Shown: positions 2,523 to 24,781 of the stretch, one piece after another | Numbering within the stretch: position 1 is the stretch's first letter | Layout of the letters: the number at the start of each line of letters is the position of its first letter | Assembly (NCBI GenBank): GCA_003056265.1 | Contig: NBVN01000006.1 | Location: forward strand, 48,678-80,677 | Origin: Zestosphaera tikiterensis | GTDB lineage: Archaea > Thermoproteota > Thermoprotei_A > Sulfolobales > NBVN01 | Direction: 5' to 3' | DNA: 32,000 bases | Notes under the pieces: generated by a model | What the model saw: the letters and a program-made list of their open reading frames with translations, nothing else | Database searches by the model: none | Told to the model about the DNA's origin: nothing | Made by a program: the position numbers and the translations under genes

Positions 2523-3248
2523 TTAGATTTTTGTGTATATCTCCACACCTAATTTTTTAGATGCCTCGATCGCTTTCTCTTCAGCATATGGTGTCACTAT
2601 GATTAGTCTTTCAGGTTCTCTTCCTGTTTTCTCCTTATATAGTTCTGCCTTCCTCTTGAATTGATATACGTCTGACGCTCTAACATGTGATGATACTTCA
2701 ATTAATGTAAGTTTTCCATCCTTAATCGCTATATCTACTTCAACTTCGCTTGGGTAACCAAACACCACGCCTCTCTCGTCATACGTTACCCATTTTTCAA
2801 CTTTAAGCCCTAACTCCTTCTCCAATACTCCTCTTAAGCCTTCTCTAAACGCTTCCTCAGCCATCAACCCCCACCTAGCACCTAAAGCAGATATGTGTCT
2901 ATTAACAAGCTCAAACCCTTTATTCATGTCTTTTCTAAGTTCTATGAGTTCTTCCTCATGTCGGTCGAGTCTTTTAAGGACTTCTTTTATCACTTCCTCA
3001 TGTCTGTCAAGCCTTTTGAGAATTTCCTGTAATACTTCCTCATGGTGGTCGAACCTCTTAAGCATTTCTTTTATTACTTCTTCATGACTATCAAGTCTCT
3101 TGAGGATTTCCTCTATCACTTCCTCGTGCTTATCAAGTCTTTTAAGGATTTCTTCTAAACCTATTAAACCAGCTACAGCATATCTAAACTCCTCATCCTC
3201 CTTCAAAAGCTTCAATATCTTAGACTTAAGCTCCGCAACCTCCATCAC
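2523..3248 (-). CDS. coiled-coil repeat protein with C-terminal PD-(D/E)XK-like domain (DUF3782-like family of thermophilic archaea)
   Basis: 241 aa. Five tandem 14-aa units (ILKRLDxHEEVIxE) are followed by ...GYPSEVEVDIAIKDGKLTLIEVSSHVRASDVYQFKRKAELY..., a restriction-endonuclease-like beta-strand pattern. Confidence 0.75.
   Translation of the reverse strand: MMEVAELKSKILKLLKEDEEFRYAVAGLIGLEEILKRLDKHEEVIEEILKRLDSHEEVIKEMLKRFDHHEEVLQEILKRLDRHEEVIKEVLKRLDRHEEELIELRKDMNKGFELVNRHISALGARWGLMAEEAFREGLRGVLEKELGLKVEKWVTYDERGVVFGYPSEVEVDIAIKDGKLTLIEVSSHVRASDVYQFKRKAELYKEKTGREPERLIIVTPYAEEKAIEASKKLGVEIYTKI
2937..3152. repeat. in-frame tandem repeat, about 42 bp x 5, inside CDS 2523-3248
   Basis: Encodes EILKRLDKHEEVIE / EILKRLDSHEEVIK / EMLKRFDHHEEVLQ / EILKRLDRHEEVIK / EVLKRLDRHEEELI (aa 33-104). 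Confidence 0.9.
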
Positions 3249-3469: not shown

Positions 3470-4243
3470 ATGGGTGGTGTTGTGAAGTTGTCTAGGCTTA
3501 GATGGTGTGTGTTACTTCAGCTTGCTAAGGCTTGGAGGTTTGGCTTAAGTGTATCTATATCTCGTGTGATTAAAGTGTTTAACTTAAATTCTTCGCTGGT
3601 ATATGGGTTTCTTCGTGAGCTTGAAGAAGATGGTTTAGCTGAAAGAACTCAGCGTGGATGGTGGGCTTTAAGTAACACTCGTAGGGCGAGGGTTCTTGCT
3701 GAATATATTCTGGAGTCGGTTAATGATGGAATACATGATTATTGGGTTAAGCACGTTCCGGAGGTTTACTACTATATTGCTGAGCCTCCTAGTGTAGAAT
3801 GGCTTGGTTACCCTAGTGAAGCGCTTGTGATAGTTGATGAACGTCTTAAGAATGGATTAAAACCTCCTAGCGGATATAGAGTTATATATACTGATATGAG
3901 GGGGCGTAGATGGAGGTATGAATGGAGTTTAGGATATTCAAGAGGGTTACCTGAGCAAAGCATAGCAGATCTTTTAAGCTATGATTCCTCATATCCTGTA
4001 GAGCAGTATATACTATCCAACATAAGTCGGGTAGACCTCGATGAAGTAGCTAAGAAAGCTACTGCGAAAGGGCTTAAAAGACTTTCAACGTTCTTAGCTT
4101 TCCTTAGGCTAGCTACGGGTAAGCTGTTACCTACAGGCTTTAACTACCTAACATTACTGGATGAGGGGGTACTTAACGAAAAACTAAGTGAGTATACGAT
4201 GTTAATATTTGCGAACAACGTAGCTGAGGAGAGGAGGTTATAG
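3470..4243 (+). CDS. winged-HTH protein, AbiEi-like putative antitoxin/regulator
   Basis: 257 aa. The N-terminal wHTH (LVYGFLRELEEDGLAERTQRGWWAL) is followed by a C-terminal domain ending ...GLPEQSIADLLSYDS, reminiscent of the AbiEi/COG5340 C-domain. Its stop lies 3 nt before the start of the next gene. Confidence 0.55.
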   Translation: MGGVVKLSRLRWCVLLQLAKAWRFGLSVSISRVIKVFNLNSSLVYGFLRELEEDGLAERTQRGWWALSNTRRARVLAEYILESVNDGIHDYWVKHVPEVYYYIAEPPSVEWLGYPSEALVIVDERLKNGLKPPSGYRVIYTDMRGRRWRYEWSLGYSRGLPEQSIADLLSYDSSYPVEQYILSNISRVDLDEVAKKATAKGLKRLSTFLAFLRLATGKLLPTGFNYLTLLDEGVLNEKLSEYTMLIFANNVAEERRL

Positions 4244-4246
4244 AGC

Positions 4247-5311
4247 TTGAGCGATGCTTCCTACAGTGAAGGAGGTGATGAAGGTAACTTAGATAAGCTA
4301 CTGGAGGAAACCCGTTTAAGGCTTAAGACATTAGTACCTGATTACTCGCAACTACCTATTATTACTCGTAAACTACCTGGAGTTGAATACGGCTTAAAGA
4401 AGTGGGAACTTAACAATGTTGAAAGAGGTTTAGAGAGAGTATGGCATATAATGAGGTTATTACGTCTTCTCTCCAGGTACTTTGGTGAGAAGCTATTCTT
4501 CGGCGGCGGCTCAATTTTAAACTATATATACATGGTTAAATATCGTGAGCCGCCTAGACTTACATTCGTTCTCGACTCAGCTTGGTATAGGGAGGTGAAG
4601 TCTAAGAGGGTTATACTAAAAGAGATGGCGGGATTTAATAAGTGGTTAGCTGAGAACGGCGCTATCCTAGAGGTGCCTACATCCACCTCGAAGAAGGTAA
4701 CGCTACTCTTAGTTGAATACGATGTCGAGAAAGACTTCTTCCCAGAGCTTCTCTCACTACGTATGCCCGTTATAACTAGGTTTGACGGTAGGCCCTTCCA
4801 TGAATTTCTTAATATACGCGACTACAACGTCATAAGGATGCTTCGAAAGGTATTCAACGAAGTCCTCGGGGTTGAGGATCCGCGAATAGACTACGTAAGG
4901 TTTGAGGTTTCATTAAACCCAGCGGGTATGCAGAGGGAGGAGGTGATGTTGGAAGACTTATTTGGTTTAAGTATTAAAACATGGATCACTTCTCTTGAAT
5001 ATCAGTTAGCATCTAAGATAACTTATAAAGTTGGTAGGGAATTCGGGGCGGCTCTAGAGTATAATCTTCATGACATCCTTAAAGCGGTTTTAGACCTTAG
5101 GCTACTTAAGTACGTAGACTCCAGTGAGGTTAAGAAGTATGTTGAAAACGTATCATACAGCATAGTGGAACACAACCTGAAAAGCCTTCTAAAACCTGAG
5201 GGAAGGAAGTTATGGGACGTAAACTATCACTACACACTCATTAGAAGGAAGTATACCTTAGAGCAGCTAGTAGGGGAAGTTGAAGCACTTCTAGAGAATG
5301 TGTTAAGATAA
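4247..5311 (+). CDS. AbiEii/DUF1814-like nucleotidyltransferase-fold protein (putative toxin), degenerate catalytic motif
   Basis: 354 aa with a TTG start abutting the upstream stop. KLFFGGGSILNYIYMVKYREPPRLTFVLDSAW aligns by eye with the GG[ST]..(n)..R.S.D.D motif, but reads V-L-D where D-x-D is expected. Confidence 0.5.
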   Translation: MSDASYSEGGDEGNLDKLLEETRLRLKTLVPDYSQLPIITRKLPGVEYGLKKWELNNVERGLERVWHIMRLLRLLSRYFGEKLFFGGGSILNYIYMVKYREPPRLTFVLDSAWYREVKSKRVILKEMAGFNKWLAENGAILEVPTSTSKKVTLLLVEYDVEKDFFPELLSLRMPVITRFDGRPFHEFLNIRDYNVIRMLRKVFNEVLGVEDPRIDYVRFEVSLNPAGMQREEVMLEDLFGLSIKTWITSLEYQLASKITYKVGREFGAALEYNLHDILKAVLDLRLLKYVDSSEVKKYVENVSYSIVEHNLKSLLKPEGRKLWDVNYHYTLIRRKYTLEQLVGEVEALLENVLR

Positions 5312-13972: not shown

Positions 13973-14902
13973 CTACGGTTCTGTAGCGCTTTCCTCAATT
14001 ATTAACGCTACCTCCTTAGGATCTATCGATGCTTTAACGCCTAAGGGAATTGTTATGTTTGGTTTTCCATGCCCGAATTTCACGCCTTTAAGTATGGGCT
14101 TATTTAAAGGTTTTAACACCTCCTCAAATACTTGATTTAATGTTAGGCTTTCCTCAGGGTTATCCGTCTCGCAGTTTGTGAAGTGTCCTAACACAATCCC
14201 AGCTGCTTGATCTAGCTTTCCAGAAAGCCTCAGCTGGGTTAACATCCTATCCACTCTATAAGGTTTTTCATTAACCTCCTCTAAAACAAGTATCTTGCCC
14301 TTGGTGTCTATCTCGTATGGTGTGCCGAGGGTTGAAACGATTAGGGATAGGTTGCCTCCCACGACCTCACCTTCAGCGAAGCCCTTAACCAGCATTTCCT
14401 CGCCGGCGATCTCCCCCAGAGGTTCTGAGGTTGTTAAAGCTTTAATTAGATATTCCTTAGTAACTTCATCTAGTTCCTCGCTAATGAACTCCACCGTAGG
14501 CATGGGGCCGTGAAACGTTATTAAACCGGCTTTTTGATTTAAAGCTATATGTAACGCGGTTATGTCGCTATACCCTAAAAGCACCTTAGGGTTTTTAGAG
14601 ATTAAGCCGTAGTCAAGTAGGTTTAACAACCTTAAGGAACCGTACCCACCGCGAACAGCGAAAACAGCTGAAACTTCAGGATCTACGAACATATTCATTA
14701 GGTCTGAAGCTCTAACGCCGTCTTCACCAGCTAAGTAGCCATGCCTGAGGTAGCAAGACCTACCCACCTTAACCTTAAAACCAAACCCCTCAACAAACCT
14801 TACAGCACGTTCTAACTTACTCGGCTCCACCGGACGTGCTGGAGCTACAAACCCAATAACGTCACCCTTCTTCAAGGCTTTAGGCCTTACATACTTAGCC
14901 AA
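13973..14902 (-). CDS. LD-carboxypeptidase / MccF-like S66 serine peptidase
   Basis: KKGDVIGFVAPARP, AVRGGYGSLRLL and LLGYSDITALH (nucleophile Ser) all fit the S66 family. Confidence 0.85.
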   Translation of the reverse strand: MAKYVRPKALKKGDVIGFVAPARPVEPSKLERAVRFVEGFGFKVKVGRSCYLRHGYLAGEDGVRASDLMNMFVDPEVSAVFAVRGGYGSLRLLNLLDYGLISKNPKVLLGYSDITALHIALNQKAGLITFHGPMPTVEFISEELDEVTKEYLIKALTTSEPLGEIAGEEMLVKGFAEGEVVGGNLSLIVSTLGTPYEIDTKGKILVLEEVNEKPYRVDRMLTQLRLSGKLDQAAGIVLGHFTNCETDNPEESLTLNQVFEEVLKPLNKPILKGVKFGHGKPNITIPLGVKASIDPKEVALIIEESATEP

Positions 14903-14937
14903 GGATAATACCTCCCTATCCTACCGTAGATATGCTT

Positions 14938-15450
14938 TCAACCCCTACCTAAATACTTAGTCAACAACCTTCTAGCAGTTAACGCCTGCCTACAGTCAGG
15001 ACATACGTAGATATCAGTATGCATATATAAATCACCAACCCTTTTATTAATCTCAACAACTAACTTAACTGGTGTGAAGGCTCTACCGCAGACCTTGCAA
15101 GTAACCGTTCTAAACACAAGTTCCCGCATTACGTCCTTCAGGTTAAACACGCTTAGTTCGAATTTGTTTGTTGTTTTTATTGCTTTTTGTGGGCATGTTT
15201 GTACGCACATCCAGCAGAATATACATCTACCTATGAAGTATTTTAGTATTGTTTCTTTTTCGTTTACTTCTATTGTTAATGCTTTTGGCGGGCATATCCT
15301 AACGCAAGCACCGCAACCAACACATTTAACAGGATCGATCTCAATCAAACCTCTAAACTCAGAAGTAACTAAAGAAGACTCAAAAGGATACCTCCTAGTA
15401 ACAGTACCAACAGTAGCTGAAGCTTTAAGAACCTTCAAAAACTTAACCAC
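14938..15450 (-). CDS. 2x[4Fe-4S] ferredoxin subunit of membrane-bound hydrogenase (HycF/NuoI/CooX-like)
   Basis: CVGCGACVRICP and CIFCWMCVQTCP, plus a C-terminal CxxC...CxxC as in HycF-type subunits. Confidence 0.85.
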   Translation of the reverse strand: MVKFLKVLKASATVGTVTRRYPFESSLVTSEFRGLIEIDPVKCVGCGACVRICPPKALTIEVNEKETILKYFIGRCIFCWMCVQTCPQKAIKTTNKFELSVFNLKDVMRELVFRTVTCKVCGRAFTPVKLVVEINKRVGDLYMHTDIYVCPDCRQALTARRLLTKYLGRG

Positions 15451-17153
15451 TAACTACCACCCTTAACACTTAACTTAATTAACGGTACCCTCTCAATCTT
15501 ACCTGTTTTTATGTTTATTTTTATTGCTCTGTCTGTGCATGAGAAGCATGGGTCTATGCTTGCTATTGTTATTGGTGCGTCAGCTAAGTCAACACCTCTT
15601 AACATCGTGGGTACTGCCTGTAGGTTTTGATACGTTGGGGACCTAACTCTCCATCTATAGGGTCCATACATGCCGGTAATCACTAAATGTATTACTTCGC
15701 CTCTTGGTGCTTCAACGTTTCCTAGCCCTAGCTTCATTGGCTGTGGTTCCCATGAATTAACTTTGATTTCGCTACCTGATGGTATTGTGTCGAGTAGTTG
15801 TTCTATTATGTTTATTGATTCGTATACCTCATCTATTCTTACTAACGTTCTAGCTAGGTTATCGCCTTCACTATACGTTGGTATTGAAAAACTTACGAAG
15901 TGGTAGGCGCCGTAGGTGTAGTCCTTCCTAACATCCCTACTAAGTCCTGAACCTCTAGCCGTAGGCCCTACCAACGAATAAGCTCTAGCCTCACCACCAG
16001 GTAAAACACCAGTACCCGATAACCTCCTCCTAACCTGAGGTACGTTAAGGAGAACTTCGGCAAACCCTTTGTAATCCTTCCATACTTCTTTTAGTGTTTG
16101 TTTTGTTTTTTCTATTTTTTCTTTGTTTATGTCTTTTCTTACCCCACCTACTAAGTTTATTCCGTATGTTTTCCTACTACCTGTTAATAACTCAGATAAA
16201 ACCATAACCTTCTCCCTAATCCTCCAAGCATACATAAAGCCTGTGTCGTATCCTAGCAAATGTGCCGCTATCCCCAGCCATAGTAGGTGGCTATGTATTC
16301 TTTCCAGCTCTAGTATTATTGTTCTTATGTATTGTGTTTTTTCAGGTACTTCAATGTTTAAAGCTTCTTCAACAGCTTGAGTATATGAAACAGAATGAAC
16401 AAAACCGCAAATACCGCAAATCCTCTCAGCAAGAAAAGGAATCTGGTCATAACCCATGCTTTCGCCTAGTTTTTCAATACCTCTATGAACCATAAAACCA
16501 ACATATCTAGCGTCAACGACCTTCTCTTCCTTAATATACAGCTCGAAATACTCCGGTTCGTGAAGTGCTGGGTGGTAAGGACCTACAGGTATTAAAGCTA
16601 CTTCTTCAGCTCCTACTTCAAGGGCTTTCTCACGTACTTGTGGTTGATATAGTTTTTTTATTTCTTCTGTTGTTATGTCTTTTTTTAGTGGGTGTATTTC
16701 TTCAGGCCAATCATCAGGTAATACAAGCCTTTTAAGAAACCTACCACTAAACTTAACGCCCATTAAATCATGAGCCTCAAGCTCATACCAATCACAAGCC
16801 TTAACAACGTCGGAAATGGAGGGTATTTCATAATGTTTTGATAGAGCCGCAGGTATCTTAACCTCTAAGATTACGTTTACTCCCTCCCTATCTAAGCCGA
16901 AGACGTAGTAAAGCTTAATTGAGTCGTTAATTAACTTCTCATCCGACGCTACCATAGTTCTTAAGTATACGTCCTCCTCAGACTGTAGGGCTTCAGCTAC
17001 TTTACGTAGGCATTCACTTTTCACAGACACTTTAACTGTTTTATCATGTATGAATTCTATCGACGTATGTGGCCCGCATAAGTCCTTAATCCTATTCAAC
17101 ACCTTAACTGTTTGGGTTTCCCCGCCTTCTTTAATTAGTAGCTGCTTAACCAT
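15450..17153 (-). CDS. [NiFe] hydrogenase large subunit, NuoC-NuoD fusion (HycE-like, group 4)
   Basis: 567 aa. The N-terminal NuoC-like domain (LVLPDDWPEEIHPLKKD) is followed by the NiFe ligands RICGICGFVHS and DPCFSCTDR, then a 25-aa tail. Confidence 0.9.
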   Translation of the reverse strand: MVKQLLIKEGGETQTVKVLNRIKDLCGPHTSIEFIHDKTVKVSVKSECLRKVAEALQSEEDVYLRTMVASDEKLINDSIKLYYVFGLDREGVNVILEVKIPAALSKHYEIPSISDVVKACDWYELEAHDLMGVKFSGRFLKRLVLPDDWPEEIHPLKKDITTEEIKKLYQPQVREKALEVGAEEVALIPVGPYHPALHEPEYFELYIKEEKVVDARYVGFMVHRGIEKLGESMGYDQIPFLAERICGICGFVHSVSYTQAVEEALNIEVPEKTQYIRTIILELERIHSHLLWLGIAAHLLGYDTGFMYAWRIREKVMVLSELLTGSRKTYGINLVGGVRKDINKEKIEKTKQTLKEVWKDYKGFAEVLLNVPQVRRRLSGTGVLPGGEARAYSLVGPTARGSGLSRDVRKDYTYGAYHFVSFSIPTYSEGDNLARTLVRIDEVYESINIIEQLLDTIPSGSEIKVNSWEPQPMKLGLGNVEAPRGEVIHLVITGMYGPYRWRVRSPTYQNLQAVPTMLRGVDLADAPITIASIDPCFSCTDRAIKINIKTGKIERVPLIKLSVKGGS

Positions 17154-18037
17154 GATAGAATCACCAAGAGGGAAATAATGATGAGTGTGGTTGTCGTAAG
17201 GGTTTTCAAGCTTAAGTCTATTCTAGTCCTACCAAGTAAAGCCGCTGTAAAGCCGTAACTTAAGTAGATCATTAAGCCGAAGGTTACGTTCGCCGCTAGT
17301 TTTATTGCGGGGTTTGTAAGGGATGTGAATGGGGTTAGGATTAGATACGCGGTGATGAAGCTTAATAAGTACTTCTTAAGTATGTGTGTGTATGAATATA
17401 TGCTTAGTAAAGGACCGCTTAACTCTATTAAAACCCCGCTAGCTAGTTCAGGTTCTGCTTCATGAATATCGTAGGGCACCCTACCACTGCTTACGTACGT
17501 AGTGATTACGACTAACGCAACACTAATTACGTAGGAAGTTATTAGCTGAGGGGACGTGTCGCTGGTGAGGTTTTTAAGAGCTGTTATTGAGTACAGCACA
17601 CCTACGAAAAAGCCTACCTCATTAACTACTTGAAGCAGGATTTTCCTAAAACTACCCACTACCGCGTAAGGGTTTGAAGTCGTTAACGACGTTAAGGATA
17701 TTAGTACGTGCGACCCAGATATTAACAATACAGTTAACGCTAGGTTTGCCGGGGTGAAAACATCTTGAGCGACAATCCAGATAGTGGAGGCTGTGGCGGT
17801 GACAGCCGTCACTAAAGCTATTGAAGATATGGTTAAGGTTAATTCAGCGCCTTTAGGAACTATTAACTCCTTAACCGCGAGTTTACGTAAGTCGTAAAAC
17901 GTCTGAAGTATGGTTGGAGGACCTACTCTAAACTGTATTTTAGCCCTTACTTTCCTTTCAATACCGTCAGCTAGTGGGGGAATTAAAAGCGAGAGAGTTA
18001 CAACAACCGCTTGAAGGATTAGTGTGGGAGTATCCAT
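17135..18037 (-). CDS. hydrogenase membrane subunit (HycD/NuoH/CooK-like)
   Basis: 300 aa, polytopic. DGIERKVRAKIQFRVGPP...QTFYDLRKL is the NuoH/HycD N-terminal signature. Confidence 0.85.
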   Translation of the reverse strand: MDTPTLILQAVVVTLSLLIPPLADGIERKVRAKIQFRVGPPTILQTFYDLRKLAVKELIVPKGAELTLTISSIALVTAVTATASTIWIVAQDVFTPANLALTVLLISGSHVLISLTSLTTSNPYAVVGSFRKILLQVVNEVGFFVGVLYSITALKNLTSDTSPQLITSYVISVALVVITTYVSSGRVPYDIHEAEPELASGVLIELSGPLLSIYSYTHILKKYLLSFITAYLILTPFTSLTNPAIKLAANVTFGLMIYLSYGFTAALLGRTRIDLSLKTLTTTTLIIISLLVILSWLSSY

Positions 18038-18414
18038 GCGTAAAACACCATCATAAGTAGTGAAGCTACGAGGAGGAAATCCACATATAGAGACATAACA
18101 GCTAAAGCGTCCTCCATAACTGCTTGAAGACCTGCTACATATCTTGTAAAGATTCCGTAGGCTCTTACTACAGCGCTTTCTGAGTGGCTAAAGCGTTTAT
18201 AAGCCTCGCTGGCTGAGCCTATGATTAGATTCACGAAGGAGTTCTCAAGGTCTGAAAAGGTCAGCGTAGGTCGTGGGAGTTTTTCAACCTTAGCTTCCTC
18301 ACTAGGTTTAAAAGCCTTAGTTAAAACAGATCTTAACTTAAGCAACGCATACATTAACTTCAGCATTAGGGAGTTTATAAAGCGAGGTTTTACTACGGCG
18401 GGTTCGCTACTCAT
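18019..18414 (-). CDS. hypothetical small protein with C-terminal TM helix, embedded in the hydrogenase operon
   Basis: The track ORF runs 18019-18435. The likely start is ATG 18414 (MSSEPAVV...), which forms a TAATG overlap with the upstream stop. No NuoB-type Cys motifs; the only hydrophobic segment is LYVDFLLVASLLMMVFYAWIL. Confidence 0.5.
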   Translation of the reverse strand: MSSEPAVVKPRFINSLMLKLMYALLKLRSVLTKAFKPSEEAKVEKLPRPTLTFSDLENSFVNLIIGSASEAYKRFSHSESAVVRAYGIFTRYVAGLQAVMEDALAVMSLYVDFLLVASLLMMVFYAWILPH

Positions 18415-19946
18415 TAAACACTCCCTCCTAACCATAGGGGTTTTGACAAGATGTTCTTAACGTATGTGTAGGCATACCACATAACGGCTAAAGCTAACGT
18501 ACTTAAAACAAGTAAAGACGCTGTTAACGTAGAGCCTAAAGCGTGAAGGCCTAACACAATCAGCGTTGGGAACGTAGCTACGACATTCATTAAAGACATC
18601 GTAAAATCGCTTGACTCCAGCTGGGGAACGCCCCTAACCTCACTTGGGGGTTTCACCTTAATCGCCCCCCAGTAAGTCAGCATGTATCTACTGCCGTAAG
18701 CAGCTGATAGAGCTAGCCCAACAGCTAAAACACTCACTAGTAAGACCCCTACAGGAGGTGAGTTAAGTATGGCTTCAGCGAAGCCTGTGAAGACCAAGAC
18801 CTTACTGACGAACCCTAAGGATGGCGGTATGCCTATGAGGGACATAGTGGAGATTAAAGCTGAGTAGGTGGGTTTAGGCGCTACCCTCCCTAAGTAACCG
18901 AGTTTAGGAAGTTCTCTAGTGTGTGTTAAAACCTCAACAACGCCTGAGTTCATGAATAAAGCTGCTTTAAATATACCATGCGCTAATGAGTAAAGTAAAG
19001 CACCCGTAAATAAGACGTCTAAGTTGAATAACCTATACGTGGTTAAAGCCAAGACTATGATGCCTGTGTTTTCTATGGTGCTATACGCTAACACCCTTTT
19101 TATGTCTGTCTGCGTTAATGCTTGTAAACCACTATATATTACAGTTATCGAGGATAGGAAGGTAAGCAGGTATAGCGTGTAGTCCGTTGAAGGTACTGAA
19201 GGTATAATCCTAAATATGCCATAGATGCCCATCTTAACCATAACACCTGATAAAACAGCTGAAGCCGGTGCTGGAGCTAGTGAGTGAGCGTCTGGAAGCC
19301 AGAAATGAAACGGAGCAACGGCTGCCTTACCTAAAAAACCAAGTAGTATAAGCGTGTAAAACGCTGGGTTAACGTCAGTTAAGATTTTGTTTAACCCATT
19401 CACGGGCGTTAAGAAGGCTTCACCTAAACTTAACTTGCCGGCAACCACGCCTAACATAGTTAATAAAGCAATGTCTGAAGGTATCATAGAGATTAAAAGA
19501 TATCTTAAACCAGCGACTAAAGTCCTTCTCTCAACTTCATAAACTATGTTGAAGAAGCCTATTATCTCCGCGAAAAGCCAAGCCATAATGAATATGGAGA
19601 GCTCGGTAGAGATGAAGACGAAGTATATGCTGAATACGAACGTATCTATCAATGAAGTAAGTCCTCCCCCACCGTATTTAACGCGTTCGTATGTCTGCGT
19701 GTAGACAGTTAGGAAGGCGCCAACCAACAGGCATAAAACCGCGAAGACCTTCGAAATTACGTCTAAGCCGCTATAGTAAAAAAGTGTGAACCCGATTAAG
19801 ATTGCGTATATAAAAACCTTCACATACGCTTTAAAACCGTTTTTTATGAGGGAATTAACTGTAATGACGGCTAAAAACGCTACGGTGGTTACCACGTATT
19901 GCTGAGGGATTAAACCTACCTGCGATGTTAGGTTTTTAATAATCAT
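18414..19946 (-). CDS. antiporter-like hydrogenase membrane subunit (HycC/NuoL/CooM-like)
   Basis: 510 aa, polytopic. FWLPDAHSLAPAPASAVLSGVMVKMGIYG matches the NuoL/M/N core motif. Confidence 0.85.
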   Translation of the reverse strand: MIIKNLTSQVGLIPQQYVVTTVAFLAVITVNSLIKNGFKAYVKVFIYAILIGFTLFYYSGLDVISKVFAVLCLLVGAFLTVYTQTYERVKYGGGGLTSLIDTFVFSIYFVFISTELSIFIMAWLFAEIIGFFNIVYEVERRTLVAGLRYLLISMIPSDIALLTMLGVVAGKLSLGEAFLTPVNGLNKILTDVNPAFYTLILLGFLGKAAVAPFHFWLPDAHSLAPAPASAVLSGVMVKMGIYGIFRIIPSVPSTDYTLYLLTFLSSITVIYSGLQALTQTDIKRVLAYSTIENTGIIVLALTTYRLFNLDVLFTGALLYSLAHGIFKAALFMNSGVVEVLTHTRELPKLGYLGRVAPKPTYSALISTMSLIGIPPSLGFVSKVLVFTGFAEAILNSPPVGVLLVSVLAVGLALSAAYGSRYMLTYWGAIKVKPPSEVRGVPQLESSDFTMSLMNVVATFPTLIVLGLHALGSTLTASLLVLSTLALAVMWYAYTYVKNILSKPLWLGGSV

Positions 19947-22979: not shown

Positions 22980-23597
22980 TCACCCCCAAGAAACTGATGA
23001 GTACATCTGCCGTAACTCAATAAGTTTAGACGGCGTTGTTTCCTCGGTGACTACCCTCACGTAGACCTTACCCGGCGTTGCTTTACCGCTGACTAACTCC
23101 TTAGCTTTAGATGCGCTTAACTCCCTTAGGAAGTCTTCAAGATATCCATATCTTAACGCGCCTGTAGGGCATGCTTCAACACATGCGGGCATTAAACCCT
23201 TCCTAACCCTATCCACGCAGAAATCACATTTAACTGCCTTCCCCACAGCTACGTCTATCTTAGGATGGCCGAAGGGACACGCTAAAGAACACATGCCACA
23301 CCCTATGCATTTAACAGCGTTAAGCAGTACGAAGCCTTCGGGACTTCTGTAAATTGCTTTAGTAGGGCATACGATCTCGCAAGGTGCTTCAGTACAGTGT
23401 TGACACCTCATGGGTATGCTGAATATAGTGTCAACAGGCACCACTCTAATCCTAGCTGAGGGTTTAGGGGTTTCTAAATGTGCGGTGAGTGTAGACTTAG
23501 TTATTGAGTGTTCTGTCGCGCAAGCTACTTCACATGCTTTGCAGGCTAAACAACGCGTAGGGTCTATAAATATGACGAGCTGTGAAATAGATCCCAC
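22980..23597 (-). CDS. cooF: CooF-type 4x[4Fe-4S] ferredoxin
   Basis: Four cluster motifs: CLACKACEVAC, CQHCTEAPCEIVCP, CIGCGMCSLACP and CDFC...CVEACP. GTG start, 5 nt upstream of cooS. Confidence 0.9.
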   Translation of the reverse strand: MGSISQLVIFIDPTRCLACKACEVACATEHSITKSTLTAHLETPKPSARIRVVPVDTIFSIPMRCQHCTEAPCEIVCPTKAIYRSPEGFVLLNAVKCIGCGMCSLACPFGHPKIDVAVGKAVKCDFCVDRVRKGLMPACVEACPTGALRYGYLEDFLRELSASKAKELVSGKATPGKVYVRVVTEETTPSKLIELRQMYSSVSWG

Positions 23598-23665: not shown

Positions 23666-24781
23666 TTATTCGATTGATTGATCACGGCTTCCTAGCTGGC
23701 GTTCTTTAAAGTCTTTATAGAGCTCAACCAGCTTAAGCCCTTCTGAAGTTAATGTGGTTTTACCTCGGCTTACACCCCCTCTAGTTGAGTGTATTAATTT
23801 AGTCTTAATGCGTTTTTCAAGCTTACGTATTCTTTCAACGCATGTGGATGGGCTTATCTTAAGTTCTTTACATGCTTTACGTAAAGAGCCTAACCTATCA
23901 ACGAGATCTAACAGTTGTATGGTTTCCTCAGGTATTACGACGTCGTTTACCTTTAGGTTTAAACTTACTAAGGGCTTAACCTTCATACCGCTAGCTATTG
24001 TTAGAGGGCATGGCTTCCTTAAAATCTCTTTTAACTCGTTATTAGATGACGGGATTAAGTTCTTCGTTAGGTTGTCGTAAGGGCATTTACCCACTTTACC
24101 TGAGTGATCTACGTAGATTTTAAAGCATTCGGAGGCTTTAGGGTGGTTTAAAAACGTTATTTTATGTCCTTCAACGTAAGCTACGGAGGCTTTATACCCG
24201 TATAGGAATCCGTACGGGAGGCCTACGTCATAACCTTTCTCTAGGAGGGTGTTTTTAAATGGTGTTAGGTTCTGATCGCATGAGTATGGAGGTTCACCAA
24301 CTCTAACTTTCAACTCGTACTTCCTGCTTAAGTTGATTAAACGCTTAAGTAAGGCTTCGTTGATTCCAGCTGGGCTTAACGAAGCATATATAGCTAAGTT
24401 CTCAACGCCGAAGCTTACCATAGCGTTAACGCGCTTCTCTAGGTTTGTTAAGTTGCTGAGGTCGTTAACTACTATAGGTACTTCATCGAATTTACTTATT
24501 AAGTCTTTACTTAAGTTAGCGATCTTAACCTCAGGAACGAAGAAGTAAACCTTATCTGCGGTTGATTTCAACACATCAACAACTTCGGAGGCTTGGTTGG
24601 TAGTTGTTGGGCATAGAAGTACTGCTTCGTTAAAACGTACGTTACTTAACGACTCTAGGCATTTCATAATTAACTTTAAATCTCCTGAGTTGTTAACTAC
24701 ATCGTCCCCGAAGTTTAAGCTGCAGTTAACGCATTTATTCCCGCAGTAGTTGCTTAACCTAAGTAGAAGGGTTTTCCACAT
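23666..24781 (-). CDS. radical-SAM/SPASM-like domain fused to ModE/LysR-type HTH (putative regulator)
   Basis: 371 aa. The N-terminal LRLSNYCGNKCVNC gives CxxxCxxC. ECFKIYVDHSGKVGKCPY looks twitch/SPASM-like. The C-terminal LLDLVDRLGSLRKACKELKISPSTCVERIRKLEKRIKTKLIHSTRGGVSRGKTTLTSEGLKL is a ModE N-terminal HTH pattern. Confidence 0.6.
   Translation of the reverse strand: MWKTLLLRLSNYCGNKCVNCSLNFGDDVVNNSGDLKLIMKCLESLSNVRFNEAVLLCPTTTNQASEVVDVLKSTADKVYFFVPEVKIANLSKDLISKFDEVPIVVNDLSNLTNLEKRVNAMVSFGVENLAIYASLSPAGINEALLKRLINLSRKYELKVRVGEPPYSCDQNLTPFKNTLLEKGYDVGLPYGFLYGYKASVAYVEGHKITFLNHPKASECFKIYVDHSGKVGKCPYDNLTKNLIPSSNNELKEILRKPCPLTIASGMKVKPLVSLNLKVNDVVIPEETIQLLDLVDRLGSLRKACKELKISPSTCVERIRKLEKRIKTKLIHSTRGGVSRGKTTLTSEGLKLVELYKDFKERQLGSRDQSIE

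Follow-up and report, generated by a model that had tools for sequence, protein, structure and literature searches.

A CO dehydrogenase-linked group 4 [NiFe] hydrogenase operon in Zestosphaera tikiterensis lacks a small-subunit gene and may borrow one from a second cluster

The core subunits of group 4 [NiFe] hydrogenases, like those of complex I, are generally regarded as an invariable set encoded together. The CODH-Mch-Mnh3 cluster of Thermococcus onnurineus NA1 (group 4b; CODH, carbon monoxide dehydrogenase) has cooF-cooS-cooC directly upstream of a hydrogenase with a fused large subunit, includes genes for a small subunit and for a complete Mrp (Mnh3) antiporter module, and supports CO-dependent hydrogenogenic energy conservation. 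In Escherichia coli formate hydrogenlyase (FHL), electrons pass from the HycB clusters via F1 and F2 of HycF and cluster G1 of the small subunit HycG to the NiFe site, each hop being under 14 Å, and HycG also contributes a conserved loop at the interface of the membrane and soluble arms (PMC9474812); since the relay passes through G1, a small subunit is needed. We analysed a 32-kb stretch (the window, to which positions refer unless a contig is named) of an 80.7-kb contig from the hot-spring crenarchaeon Zestosphaera tikiterensis (Desulfurococcales), where cooF, cooS and cooC likewise precede a hydrogenase with a fused large subunit. Unlike the T. onnurineus cluster, this operon encodes neither a small subunit nor an Mrp module, and we suggest that its products may use a small subunit encoded by a second hydrogenase cluster of the same genome.

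The hydrogenase genes form the second half of an operon that opens with the CO-dehydrogenase genes cooF-cooS-cooC-cooT, a single tight minus-strand array (23597 to 14938) that continues through genes for a NuoL-like protein, a 131-residue protein, a NuoH-like protein, a fused NuoCD large subunit and a NuoI-like protein (Table 1). The five hydrogenase genes overlap by 1-19 nt, and the remaining intergenic gaps in the array measure 5-81 nt. An earlier note on this DNA gave correct coordinates and strand for the open reading frames (ORFs), and family matches agree with its gene order, hycC-(small transmembrane protein)-D-E-F; it had the operon start at 19946, however, and so missed the whole coo half, as well as the second, complete cluster described below. 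CooS scores 753 bits against TIGR01702 CO_DH_cata (cutoff 478). The large subunit, identical (100%) to PUA31839.1, has as its closest solved structures E. coli HycE (7z0s_E, E = 1e-121) and MbhL (6cfw_L, 5.6e-76). Its translation retains both NiFe-ligating Cys pairs (RICGICG and DPCFSCTDR) followed by a 25-residue C-terminal extension, which rules out an Ehr-type degenerate complex, as the earlier note had argued from RICGICG and DPCFSC. The NuoI-like protein carries two [4Fe-4S] motifs (C43-C53 and C76-C86) and a C-terminal quartet of C118, C121, C150 and C153 (CxxC-x28-CPxC). Its top NCBIfam match is the formate hydrogenlyase iron-sulfur subunit, and that of the NuoL-like protein is hydrogenase 4 subunit B (HyfB), both with scores under the cutoff. 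As a CODH-linked hydrogenase, therefore, the locus has CooS, CooF and CooC in one operon with hydrogenase genes but no complete hydrogenase with a small subunit; as a group 4 enzyme, it has the NiFe large subunit and the NuoH-, NuoL- and NuoI-like proteins but neither a co-encoded small subunit nor the adjacent Mrp module that characterises subgroup 4b.

The lack of a small-subunit gene in this CO-linked hydrogenase operon, already noticed from the sequence, is real and robust. A profile search of the kind that the earlier note had proposed returned no PF01058 match in any operon ORF, ruling out a small-subunit domain hidden inside one of them. In a six-frame translation of the whole 32-kb window, the motifs CCxxE, GxCxxxGG and GCPP had zero matches, and a looser GxCxxxG pattern had five, all in stop-interrupted frames. 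Searching the window by tblastn with three HycG-type small subunits from relatives gave a best E of 0.17, which is at chance level, and the 85-87-residue gene that follows the small-subunit gene in those relatives is absent from the window as well. Nor is there room for such a gene, as had been claimed: the hydrogenase genes overlap, and a 35-nt gap then leads into a full-length LD-carboxypeptidase gene. Reading of the sequence and tblastn also ruled out a pseudogene remnant in that gap, within the peptidase gene and in the spacer of 220 nt that precedes nurA.

That a hycG-type gene should come next, and that its absence is unexpected, is confirmed by the relatives. The nearest large subunits are 57-76% identical (Zestosphaera spp. 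and Ignisphaera sp. 4213-co), and all occur in Mrp-linked clusters, with a layout that is clearest in Zestosphaera: seven Mrp-type genes (MrpF, MrpG, MbhD, MnhB, NuoK-like, MnhE and a second antiporter subunit), then genes for a NuoL-like protein, a 110-117-residue protein, a NuoH-like protein, NuoCD, a NuoI-like protein and the small subunit. In every relative examined the small-subunit gene (PF01058, 162-181 residues) directly follows the NuoI-like gene, overlapping its stop codon, and is itself followed by the 85-87-residue gene. No Mrp family was matched among the scanned window ORFs, where the neighbours of the hydrogenase genes are cooFSCT on one side and LD-carboxypeptidase plus nurA-herA-mre11-rad50 on the other. 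Exact-match look-ups of the window large subunit, its database copy P0001, the paralogue P0241 and the 170-residue NuoI-like protein gave no entry, a scan of a genome collection with the window large subunit found no relative, and a metagenome scan with the window NuoH found only relatives at 39-41% identity. Replacement of the small-subunit gene by the peptidase gene cannot be shown from these comparisons, because the closest relatives are paralogues at a different locus and not orthologues. One explanation takes the operon at face value, with a complex that works without a NuoB-type subunit and electrons that reach the NiFe site directly from the HycF-like subunit or CooF. None is indeed encoded in the operon, but the FHL relay needs G1 within the 14 Å limit between HycF and NiFe and HycG also supplies the interface loop (PMC9474812), and no operon protein offers an extra cluster; the 131-residue protein, with zero cysteines and one transmembrane helix, was ruled out as a substitute carrier. 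We regard this explanation as highly improbable.

The genome does contain a small-subunit gene, in a complete Mrp-linked cluster that we call cluster B, the window's being cluster A. Its product, PUA32387.1 (173 residues, 91% identical to the small subunit of the closest relative, which served as query), is encoded on a separate 454,821-bp contig and is the only Z. tikiterensis small subunit detected among the best 120 of more than 7,800 homologues, a range outside which a copy at ~50% identity would fall. The same 454-kb contig encodes PUA32385.1 (P0241), the second same-genome member of the 90%-identity cluster of the window large subunit, and the PUA accession numbers imply the order large subunit, NuoI, small subunit for cluster B. 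Metagenome contigs L009-L012 represent this cluster and show the 3' end of the large-subunit gene, NuoI, the small subunit, an 86-residue gene, Pyr_redox_2 and Fer4_11. The earlier note had allowed for a dedicated small-subunit gene elsewhere in the genome; a gene elsewhere exists, but it belongs to cluster B and is not dedicated to the window operon. The puzzle is thereby reduced, not removed. PMC11467010, citing St John et al. 2019, credits Z. tikiterensis with two group 4b clusters, of which the first contains cooS and the second a Na+/H+ antiporter, and CO-dependent growth or H2 production is suggested there from gene content alone; no mention of a missing small subunit in the cooS cluster was found in it.

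To relate the two clusters, we compared cluster A at the nucleotide level with L012, using L005 as the sister-species orthologue. Identity between A and B is 99-100% over 15603-15504, 52% over 15503-15406, 94-100% over 15405-15150 and 39-64% below 15150, whereas cluster B is 70-88% identical to L005 across all four regions. Homology to cluster B ends at 15150, the 3' edge of the longer tract, where L009, L010 and L013 also break. The same pattern appears in the proteins. The NuoI-like protein is 90% identical to its paralogue over residues 1-100 and 37% over residues 101-170. The large subunit is 81% identical to P0241 overall, as a mosaic with tracts of 100%: (i) its first ~120 residues are 17-60% identical between A and B, compared with 73-92% between B and L005; (ii) further on, A and B reach 100% identity in several stretches, where both are just 87-97% identical to L005; and (iii) the rest of the NuoD domain is 90-100% identical in most segments at the protein level, there being no B DNA to compare there. 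The conversion tracts (Table 1) cover the NuoI Fe-S core and at least one tract of the large-subunit gene, and most of the NuoD domain has become B-like, leaving unconverted the C-terminal NuoI extension (residues 101-170) and the NuoC-like N-terminus of the large subunit. Since both copies lie at B-type distance from L005 within the tracts, B was the donor and A the recipient. Outside them, A-type NuoL is 51-53% identical to Mrp-linked orthologues of other Zestosphaera, A-type NuoH 44-47% identical to orthologues in relatives, and the 131-residue protein 31-36%; taken with the large-subunit N-terminus and the last 70 NuoI residues, the A-type sequences are 17-60% identical to B or to orthologues, whereas cluster B and its orthologue are 73-92% identical. 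With membrane subunits this far from all orthologues, cluster A is an old duplicate. Overall, it is a mosaic in which old paralogous sequence alternates with tracts recently converted from B.

This divergence bears on whether cluster A might have its own, equally divergent small-subunit gene, an orphan located in some other part of the genome than the 32-kb window. The stretch inspected makes up 32 kb of a contig of 80.7 kb, and other A-type subunits are about as divergent (~50% identity) as a copy that would be missed among the best 120 of more than 7,800 homologues. However, just two group 4b clusters are reported for the genome in PMC11467010, the small-subunit gene directly follows NuoI in every related cluster, so that an orphan needs an extra rearrangement, and homogenisation of the A-type core towards B would be unnecessary if A had its own partner. 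We therefore consider an orphan gene distinctly unlikely.

Tracts of near identity also create an opportunity for misassembly. Contigs L009, L010 and L013 share a start point exactly 30 nt ahead of position 15150 (window 15179); L009, which is identical to L010, and L013 have these first 30 nt in common and then diverge, the pattern left where a de Bruijn graph branches at a repeat end. The window contig might then have been mis-joined at this ~250-nt repeat, near-identical and ending exactly at 15150, where the short-read contigs break, and the real CO-linked cluster would continue into a small-subunit gene. Contigs that cross the repeat effectively refute this explanation. JGI contig L099 (3300005800), an independent assembly, differs from the window at 16 of 1,598 positions (99.0% identity) and on account of these single-nucleotide differences represents a second strain; it runs from the final 181 codons of the large-subunit gene through the complete HycF-like gene and across the gap of 35 nt into the LD-carboxypeptidase gene, thus reading from the A-type tail through the repeat to the A-type C-terminus. 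L012 links the B-type large-subunit tail across the repeat to the B-type NuoI C-terminus and the small-subunit gene. In addition, every unconverted patch is of the divergent A type in the window and of the orthologue-like B type in P0241/L012. An assembly swap of 3' ends at the shared repeat is ruled out by L099 (A to A) and L012 (B to B). Logan contig L013 (SRR17771679) matches window 15179-5882 at 100% identity, and the lack of the small-subunit gene is seen in two very closely related strains and three assemblies (window, L013 and L099). Short-read contigs of both clusters end in the large-subunit or NuoI-like genes beside the A/B conversion tracts (L098 ends at ~16635; L009, L010 and L013 start at 15179), and automated surveys will often meet truncated versions of these hydrogenase clusters and could miscount their subunits.

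Selection on cluster A was examined with JGI contig L098 (3300020567), from a second strain at 97.5% nucleotide identity, which extends over cooS-cooC-cooT-NuoL_A-131aa-NuoH_A into the 5' part of the gene for the large subunit. The NuoH-like protein P0243 of a second strain is 96% identical to that of the window. Ratios of nonsynonymous to synonymous substitution (dN/dS) were calculated by the Nei-Gojobori method between the window and L098, which does not include NuoI (Table 1). In the three membrane genes, synonymous changes are in significant excess (p < 1e-5), and all five hydrogenase ORFs are full length despite 40-55% amino-acid divergence from orthologues. The hydrogenase genes of cluster A are thus under purifying selection, and the ratios, together with full-length ORFs at ~50% divergence, argue against a decaying pseudogene array. 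The contrary proposal is that cluster A is a truncated, inactive paralogue that has lost its small subunit, and perhaps an Mrp module, with CooS and CooF feeding ferredoxin or cluster B. The small subunit missing here is indispensable in characterised group 4 enzymes (PMC9474812), the Mrp module and 86-residue gene of all related clusters are missing too, dN/dS is higher in the hydrogenase membrane genes than in the coo genes, and in Carboxydothermus pertinax a CODH is known to couple to a hydrogenase encoded at a distance (PMC6557876). We nevertheless judge decay unlikely, because the five ORFs have stayed intact over such divergence, dN/dS lies at 0.08-0.30, significantly below 1, all metal ligands are retained, the tightly overlapping gene junctions suggest translational coupling, and at least two strains retain this architecture.

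The coo genes point in another direction. The closest CooS homologues come from a Candidatus Asgardarchaeum abyssi metagenome-assembled genome (MAG; 74%), bacterium GBS-1 (71%), an uncultured Desulfurococcales MAG (70%) and a Pyrodictiaceae MAG (60%); the adjoining genes encode CooF at 45-54% and CooC at 50-58% identity to the window proteins. On the contigs that are long enough and on which hydrogenase genes were detected beside cooS, L014 (A. abyssi) and L018 (Pyrodictiaceae), these genes include a small subunit and follow another gene order. Because the relatives of the coo genes and of the cluster A hydrogenase genes differ, the two halves of the operon have different affinities, and the hydrogenase part of cluster A derives from the lineage's own Mrp-linked type.

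We favour the reading that the window operon would encode a minimal CO-hydrogen lyase borrowing the cluster B small subunit PUA32387.1 in trans, at a probability of roughly 0.55. CooS and CooF, matured by CooC and CooT, would form an input module that oxidises CO; the HycC-, HycD-, HycE- and HycF-like proteins with the 131-residue single-pass protein would form a hydrogenase module of the Hyc-type group 4 [NiFe] kind; and these A proteins would assemble with the B-encoded small subunit, so that one small subunit serves two hydrogenase isoenzymes. The catalytic equipment counts in favour of a CO-hydrogen lyase, being intact in its Cys pairs, processing extension, [4Fe-4S] motifs, Cys quartet and CooS score. 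Because conversion ran from B to A, the core of the A peripheral arm now differs little from the proteins alongside which the small subunit of B evolved; this B-like core would supply the fit to PUA32387.1, and A-specific surfaces would supply specificity for CooF/CooS. Candidates for docking surfaces so specialised are the NuoC-like N-terminus and the HycF-type Cys-quartet extension. The Cys-quartet extension at the HycF C-terminus makes contact with HycB in E. coli FHL and is turned towards FdhF (PMC9474812), and an unconverted NuoI extension would fit specialisation for a different input module. From these comparisons we infer trans-assembly and CO-dependent H2 evolution, with a mosaic that keeps the small-subunit-contacting core B-identical and the docking surfaces A-specific. 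More tentatively, the isoenzymes may share one small subunit onto which a CO-dedicated set plugs, possibly also onto the Mrp module, with recurrent gene conversion preserving the binding core. This gene arrangement is an undescribed variant among CODH-linked group 4 hydrogenases and implies sharing in trans.

Several points weigh against this proposal. A literature search for a precedent for a trans-supplied or shared group 4 small subunit found none, and we know of no documented sharing of a small subunit between two group 4 hydrogenases. Gene conversion may just track sequence similarity, without selection for interface compatibility. A divergent orphan small-subunit gene, improbable as it seems, could lie beyond the homologues seen. 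At about twice the value for the coo genes, dN/dS in the hydrogenase membrane genes would allow for some relaxed constraint, and L098, the source of most of the dN/dS data, ends inside the large-subunit gene, short of the small-subunit position.

Table 1. Features of the cluster A locus and of related contigs (window positions unless a contig is named; dN/dS, window versus L098)
Feature	Position	Strand	Evidence	dN/dS
371-residue protein with C-terminal LysR/ModE-type helix-turn-helix, directly upstream of cooF	23666-24781	-	PF00126 HTH_1, E 1.2e-9	
cooF-like 4Fe-4S electron-transfer protein, 205 residues, first operon gene	22980-23597	-	PF13247 Fer4_11, E 1.8e-23	
cooS, Ni-CO dehydrogenase catalytic subunit, 637 residues	21061-22974	-	PF03063, 616 bits	0.14
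cooC-like Ni-insertion ATPase, 268 residues	20173-20979	-	CbiA/ParA-type P-loop matches	0.15
cooT, CODH accessory protein, 66 residues	19955-20155	-	PF10133 CooT, E 1.6e-9, 38.4 bits (cutoff 27)	0.08
NuoL/HycC/HyfB-like antiporter-type membrane subunit, A-type paralogue, 510 residues	18414-19946	-	PF00361 Proton_antipo_M	0.28
131-residue protein, single C-terminal transmembrane helix, zero Cys	18019-18414	-	Position and alignment with relatives	0.25
NuoH/HycD-like membrane subunit, A-type paralogue, 300 residues	17135-18037	-	PF00146 NADHdh, E 4e-35	0.30
[NiFe] large subunit, HycE-type NuoC-NuoD fusion, 567 residues	15450-17153	-	PF00329 + PF00346 + PF00374	0.075 (5' part of gene)
Second gene-conversion tract, 3' part of large-subunit gene	15499-15598		99/100 nt identical to L012; flanks 52-68%	
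NuoI/HycF-like subunit, 170 residues, last hydrogenase gene, GTG start	14938-15450	-	Fer4 family matches	
Gene-conversion tract	15150-15401		247/252 nt identical to L012; B versus L005 76-86% over same columns	
Intergenic junction, 35 nt, where relatives carry the small-subunit gene	14903-14937		Sequence read	
S66 LD-carboxypeptidase, full length, flanking gene outside the hydrogenase	13973-14902	-	PF02016 + PF17676	
85-87-residue gene	L009 753-1013; L001 12734-12991; L005 12724-12984; L004 12630-12893			

The small membrane protein of cluster A lies in an ORF that at its longest reaches 18435 (138 residues); the ATG at 18414 gives 131 residues and a one-base overlap with the stop codon of the NuoL-like gene, and the same version is called by JGI in L098. 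No family or structure was found for this protein in Pfam, NCBIfam or PDB, although it aligns with the 110-117-residue proteins of relatives and is kept between the NuoL-like and NuoH-like genes throughout the family. Relatives of the 85-87-residue protein were likewise found in none of these three databases; it always comes after the small-subunit gene in Mrp-linked clusters and has invariant C8, R19-H20 and C28. A Pyr_redox_2 flavoprotein and a Fer4_11 ferredoxin-like protein form a pair in L001 (13011-14565), L009 (1031-2599) and L004 (5776-7328), located downstream of the small subunit and 86-residue gene in Zestosphaera and between the Mrp genes and the NuoL-like gene in Ignisphaera. In Zestosphaera the pair ends the Mrp-linked layout and is missing on short contigs because these are cut off; it may be a dedicated electron-input module of cluster B. 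In the closest relative (L005 11691-12213; also L006 and L007), the NuoI-like protein is called as 90 residues, though a frame of ~170 residues is open, and the gene probably uses a non-ATG start, as does the GTG-start gene of the window.

Of the genes flanking the operon, the 371-residue protein also matches the TIGR00637 ModE domain (E 3.5e-13, under the cutoff), and its N-terminal part is Cys-rich and has no family match. By its position alone, it is a candidate regulator of the operon, possibly CO-responsive. At the other end, the LD-carboxypeptidase gene, which sits between the hydrogenase operon and nurA-herA-mre11-rad50, is possibly co-transcribed with the operon, given the 35 nt that separate it from the NuoI-like stop codon. 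It encodes an S66 LD-carboxypeptidase homologue in an archaeon expected to lack murein. Elsewhere in the window, a minus-strand gene at 2523-3248 encodes a protein with DUF3782 and a PD-(D/E)XK nuclease (PDDEXK_10) domain; the neighbouring ORFs at 3470-4243 and 4247-5311 have no family match.

If selection maintains a catalytic large subunit that has no small subunit of its own and obtains one from a paralogous operon, the hydrogenase core would show a modularity like that of the cyanobacterial NDH-1 membrane modules, and genome-based prediction of hydrogenogenic carboxydotrophy could not score gene clusters in isolation. The two clusters would also offer a natural experiment on which HycE and HycF surfaces must match the small subunit and which the input module. 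Because Z. tikiterensis NZ3 is in culture, this reading is testable.

Among known systems, E. coli formate hydrogenlyase-1 (HycB-G plus FdhF; 7Z0S; group 4a) shares with the window the hycC-D-E-F order, the HycE-type fusion, a HycF type with two [4Fe-4S] motifs and a C-terminal CxxC...CPxC quartet, two core membrane subunits and an input enzyme attached through a poly-ferredoxin. With CooS/CooF in place of FdhF/HycB, it maps one-to-one on the window operon, the sole missing piece being HycG. The window differs in the extra 131-residue single-pass protein between the HycC and HycD homologues, in its crenarchaeal host and in NCBIfam scores below the Hyc/Hyf equivalog cutoffs. The Mrp-linked group 4b clusters (Z. 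tikiterensis B and those of other Zestosphaera and Ignisphaera; L001-L005 and L008-L012) have the same core of NuoL, small transmembrane protein, NuoH, NuoCD and NuoI, but with Mrp genes upstream and the small subunit, the 85-87-residue gene and Pyr_redox_2 plus Fer4_11 downstream, whereas the window has cooFSCT upstream and no hydrogenase genes downstream. The Coo-type CODH and energy-converting hydrogenase (ECH) clusters (cooMKLXUH-cooFS, group 4c), and L014 and L018, possess the same cooF-cooS-cooC(-cooT) module, with CooS 60-74% identical; unlike the window, they have a small-subunit gene and a different gene order, and the hydrogenase genes of the window are related instead to the organism's own Mrp-linked cluster. 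Cyanobacterial NDH-1L and NDH-1MS provide an analogy, not a case of membership, in which separately encoded paralogous modules are mounted on a shared core that includes a NuoB homologue. There the exchangeable parts are the antiporter-like NdhD/NdhF and sharing is demonstrated; in the window the catalytic large subunit would belong to the parts exchanged, with the small subunit as the part in common, and sharing is deduced from the genes. Finally, Carboxydothermus pertinax resembles our proposal in having a hydrogenogenic CO pathway with parts at separate loci, CODH-II and a distal ECH (PMC6557876); in that organism a whole, complete ECH is distal, whereas the window complex would import a single subunit.

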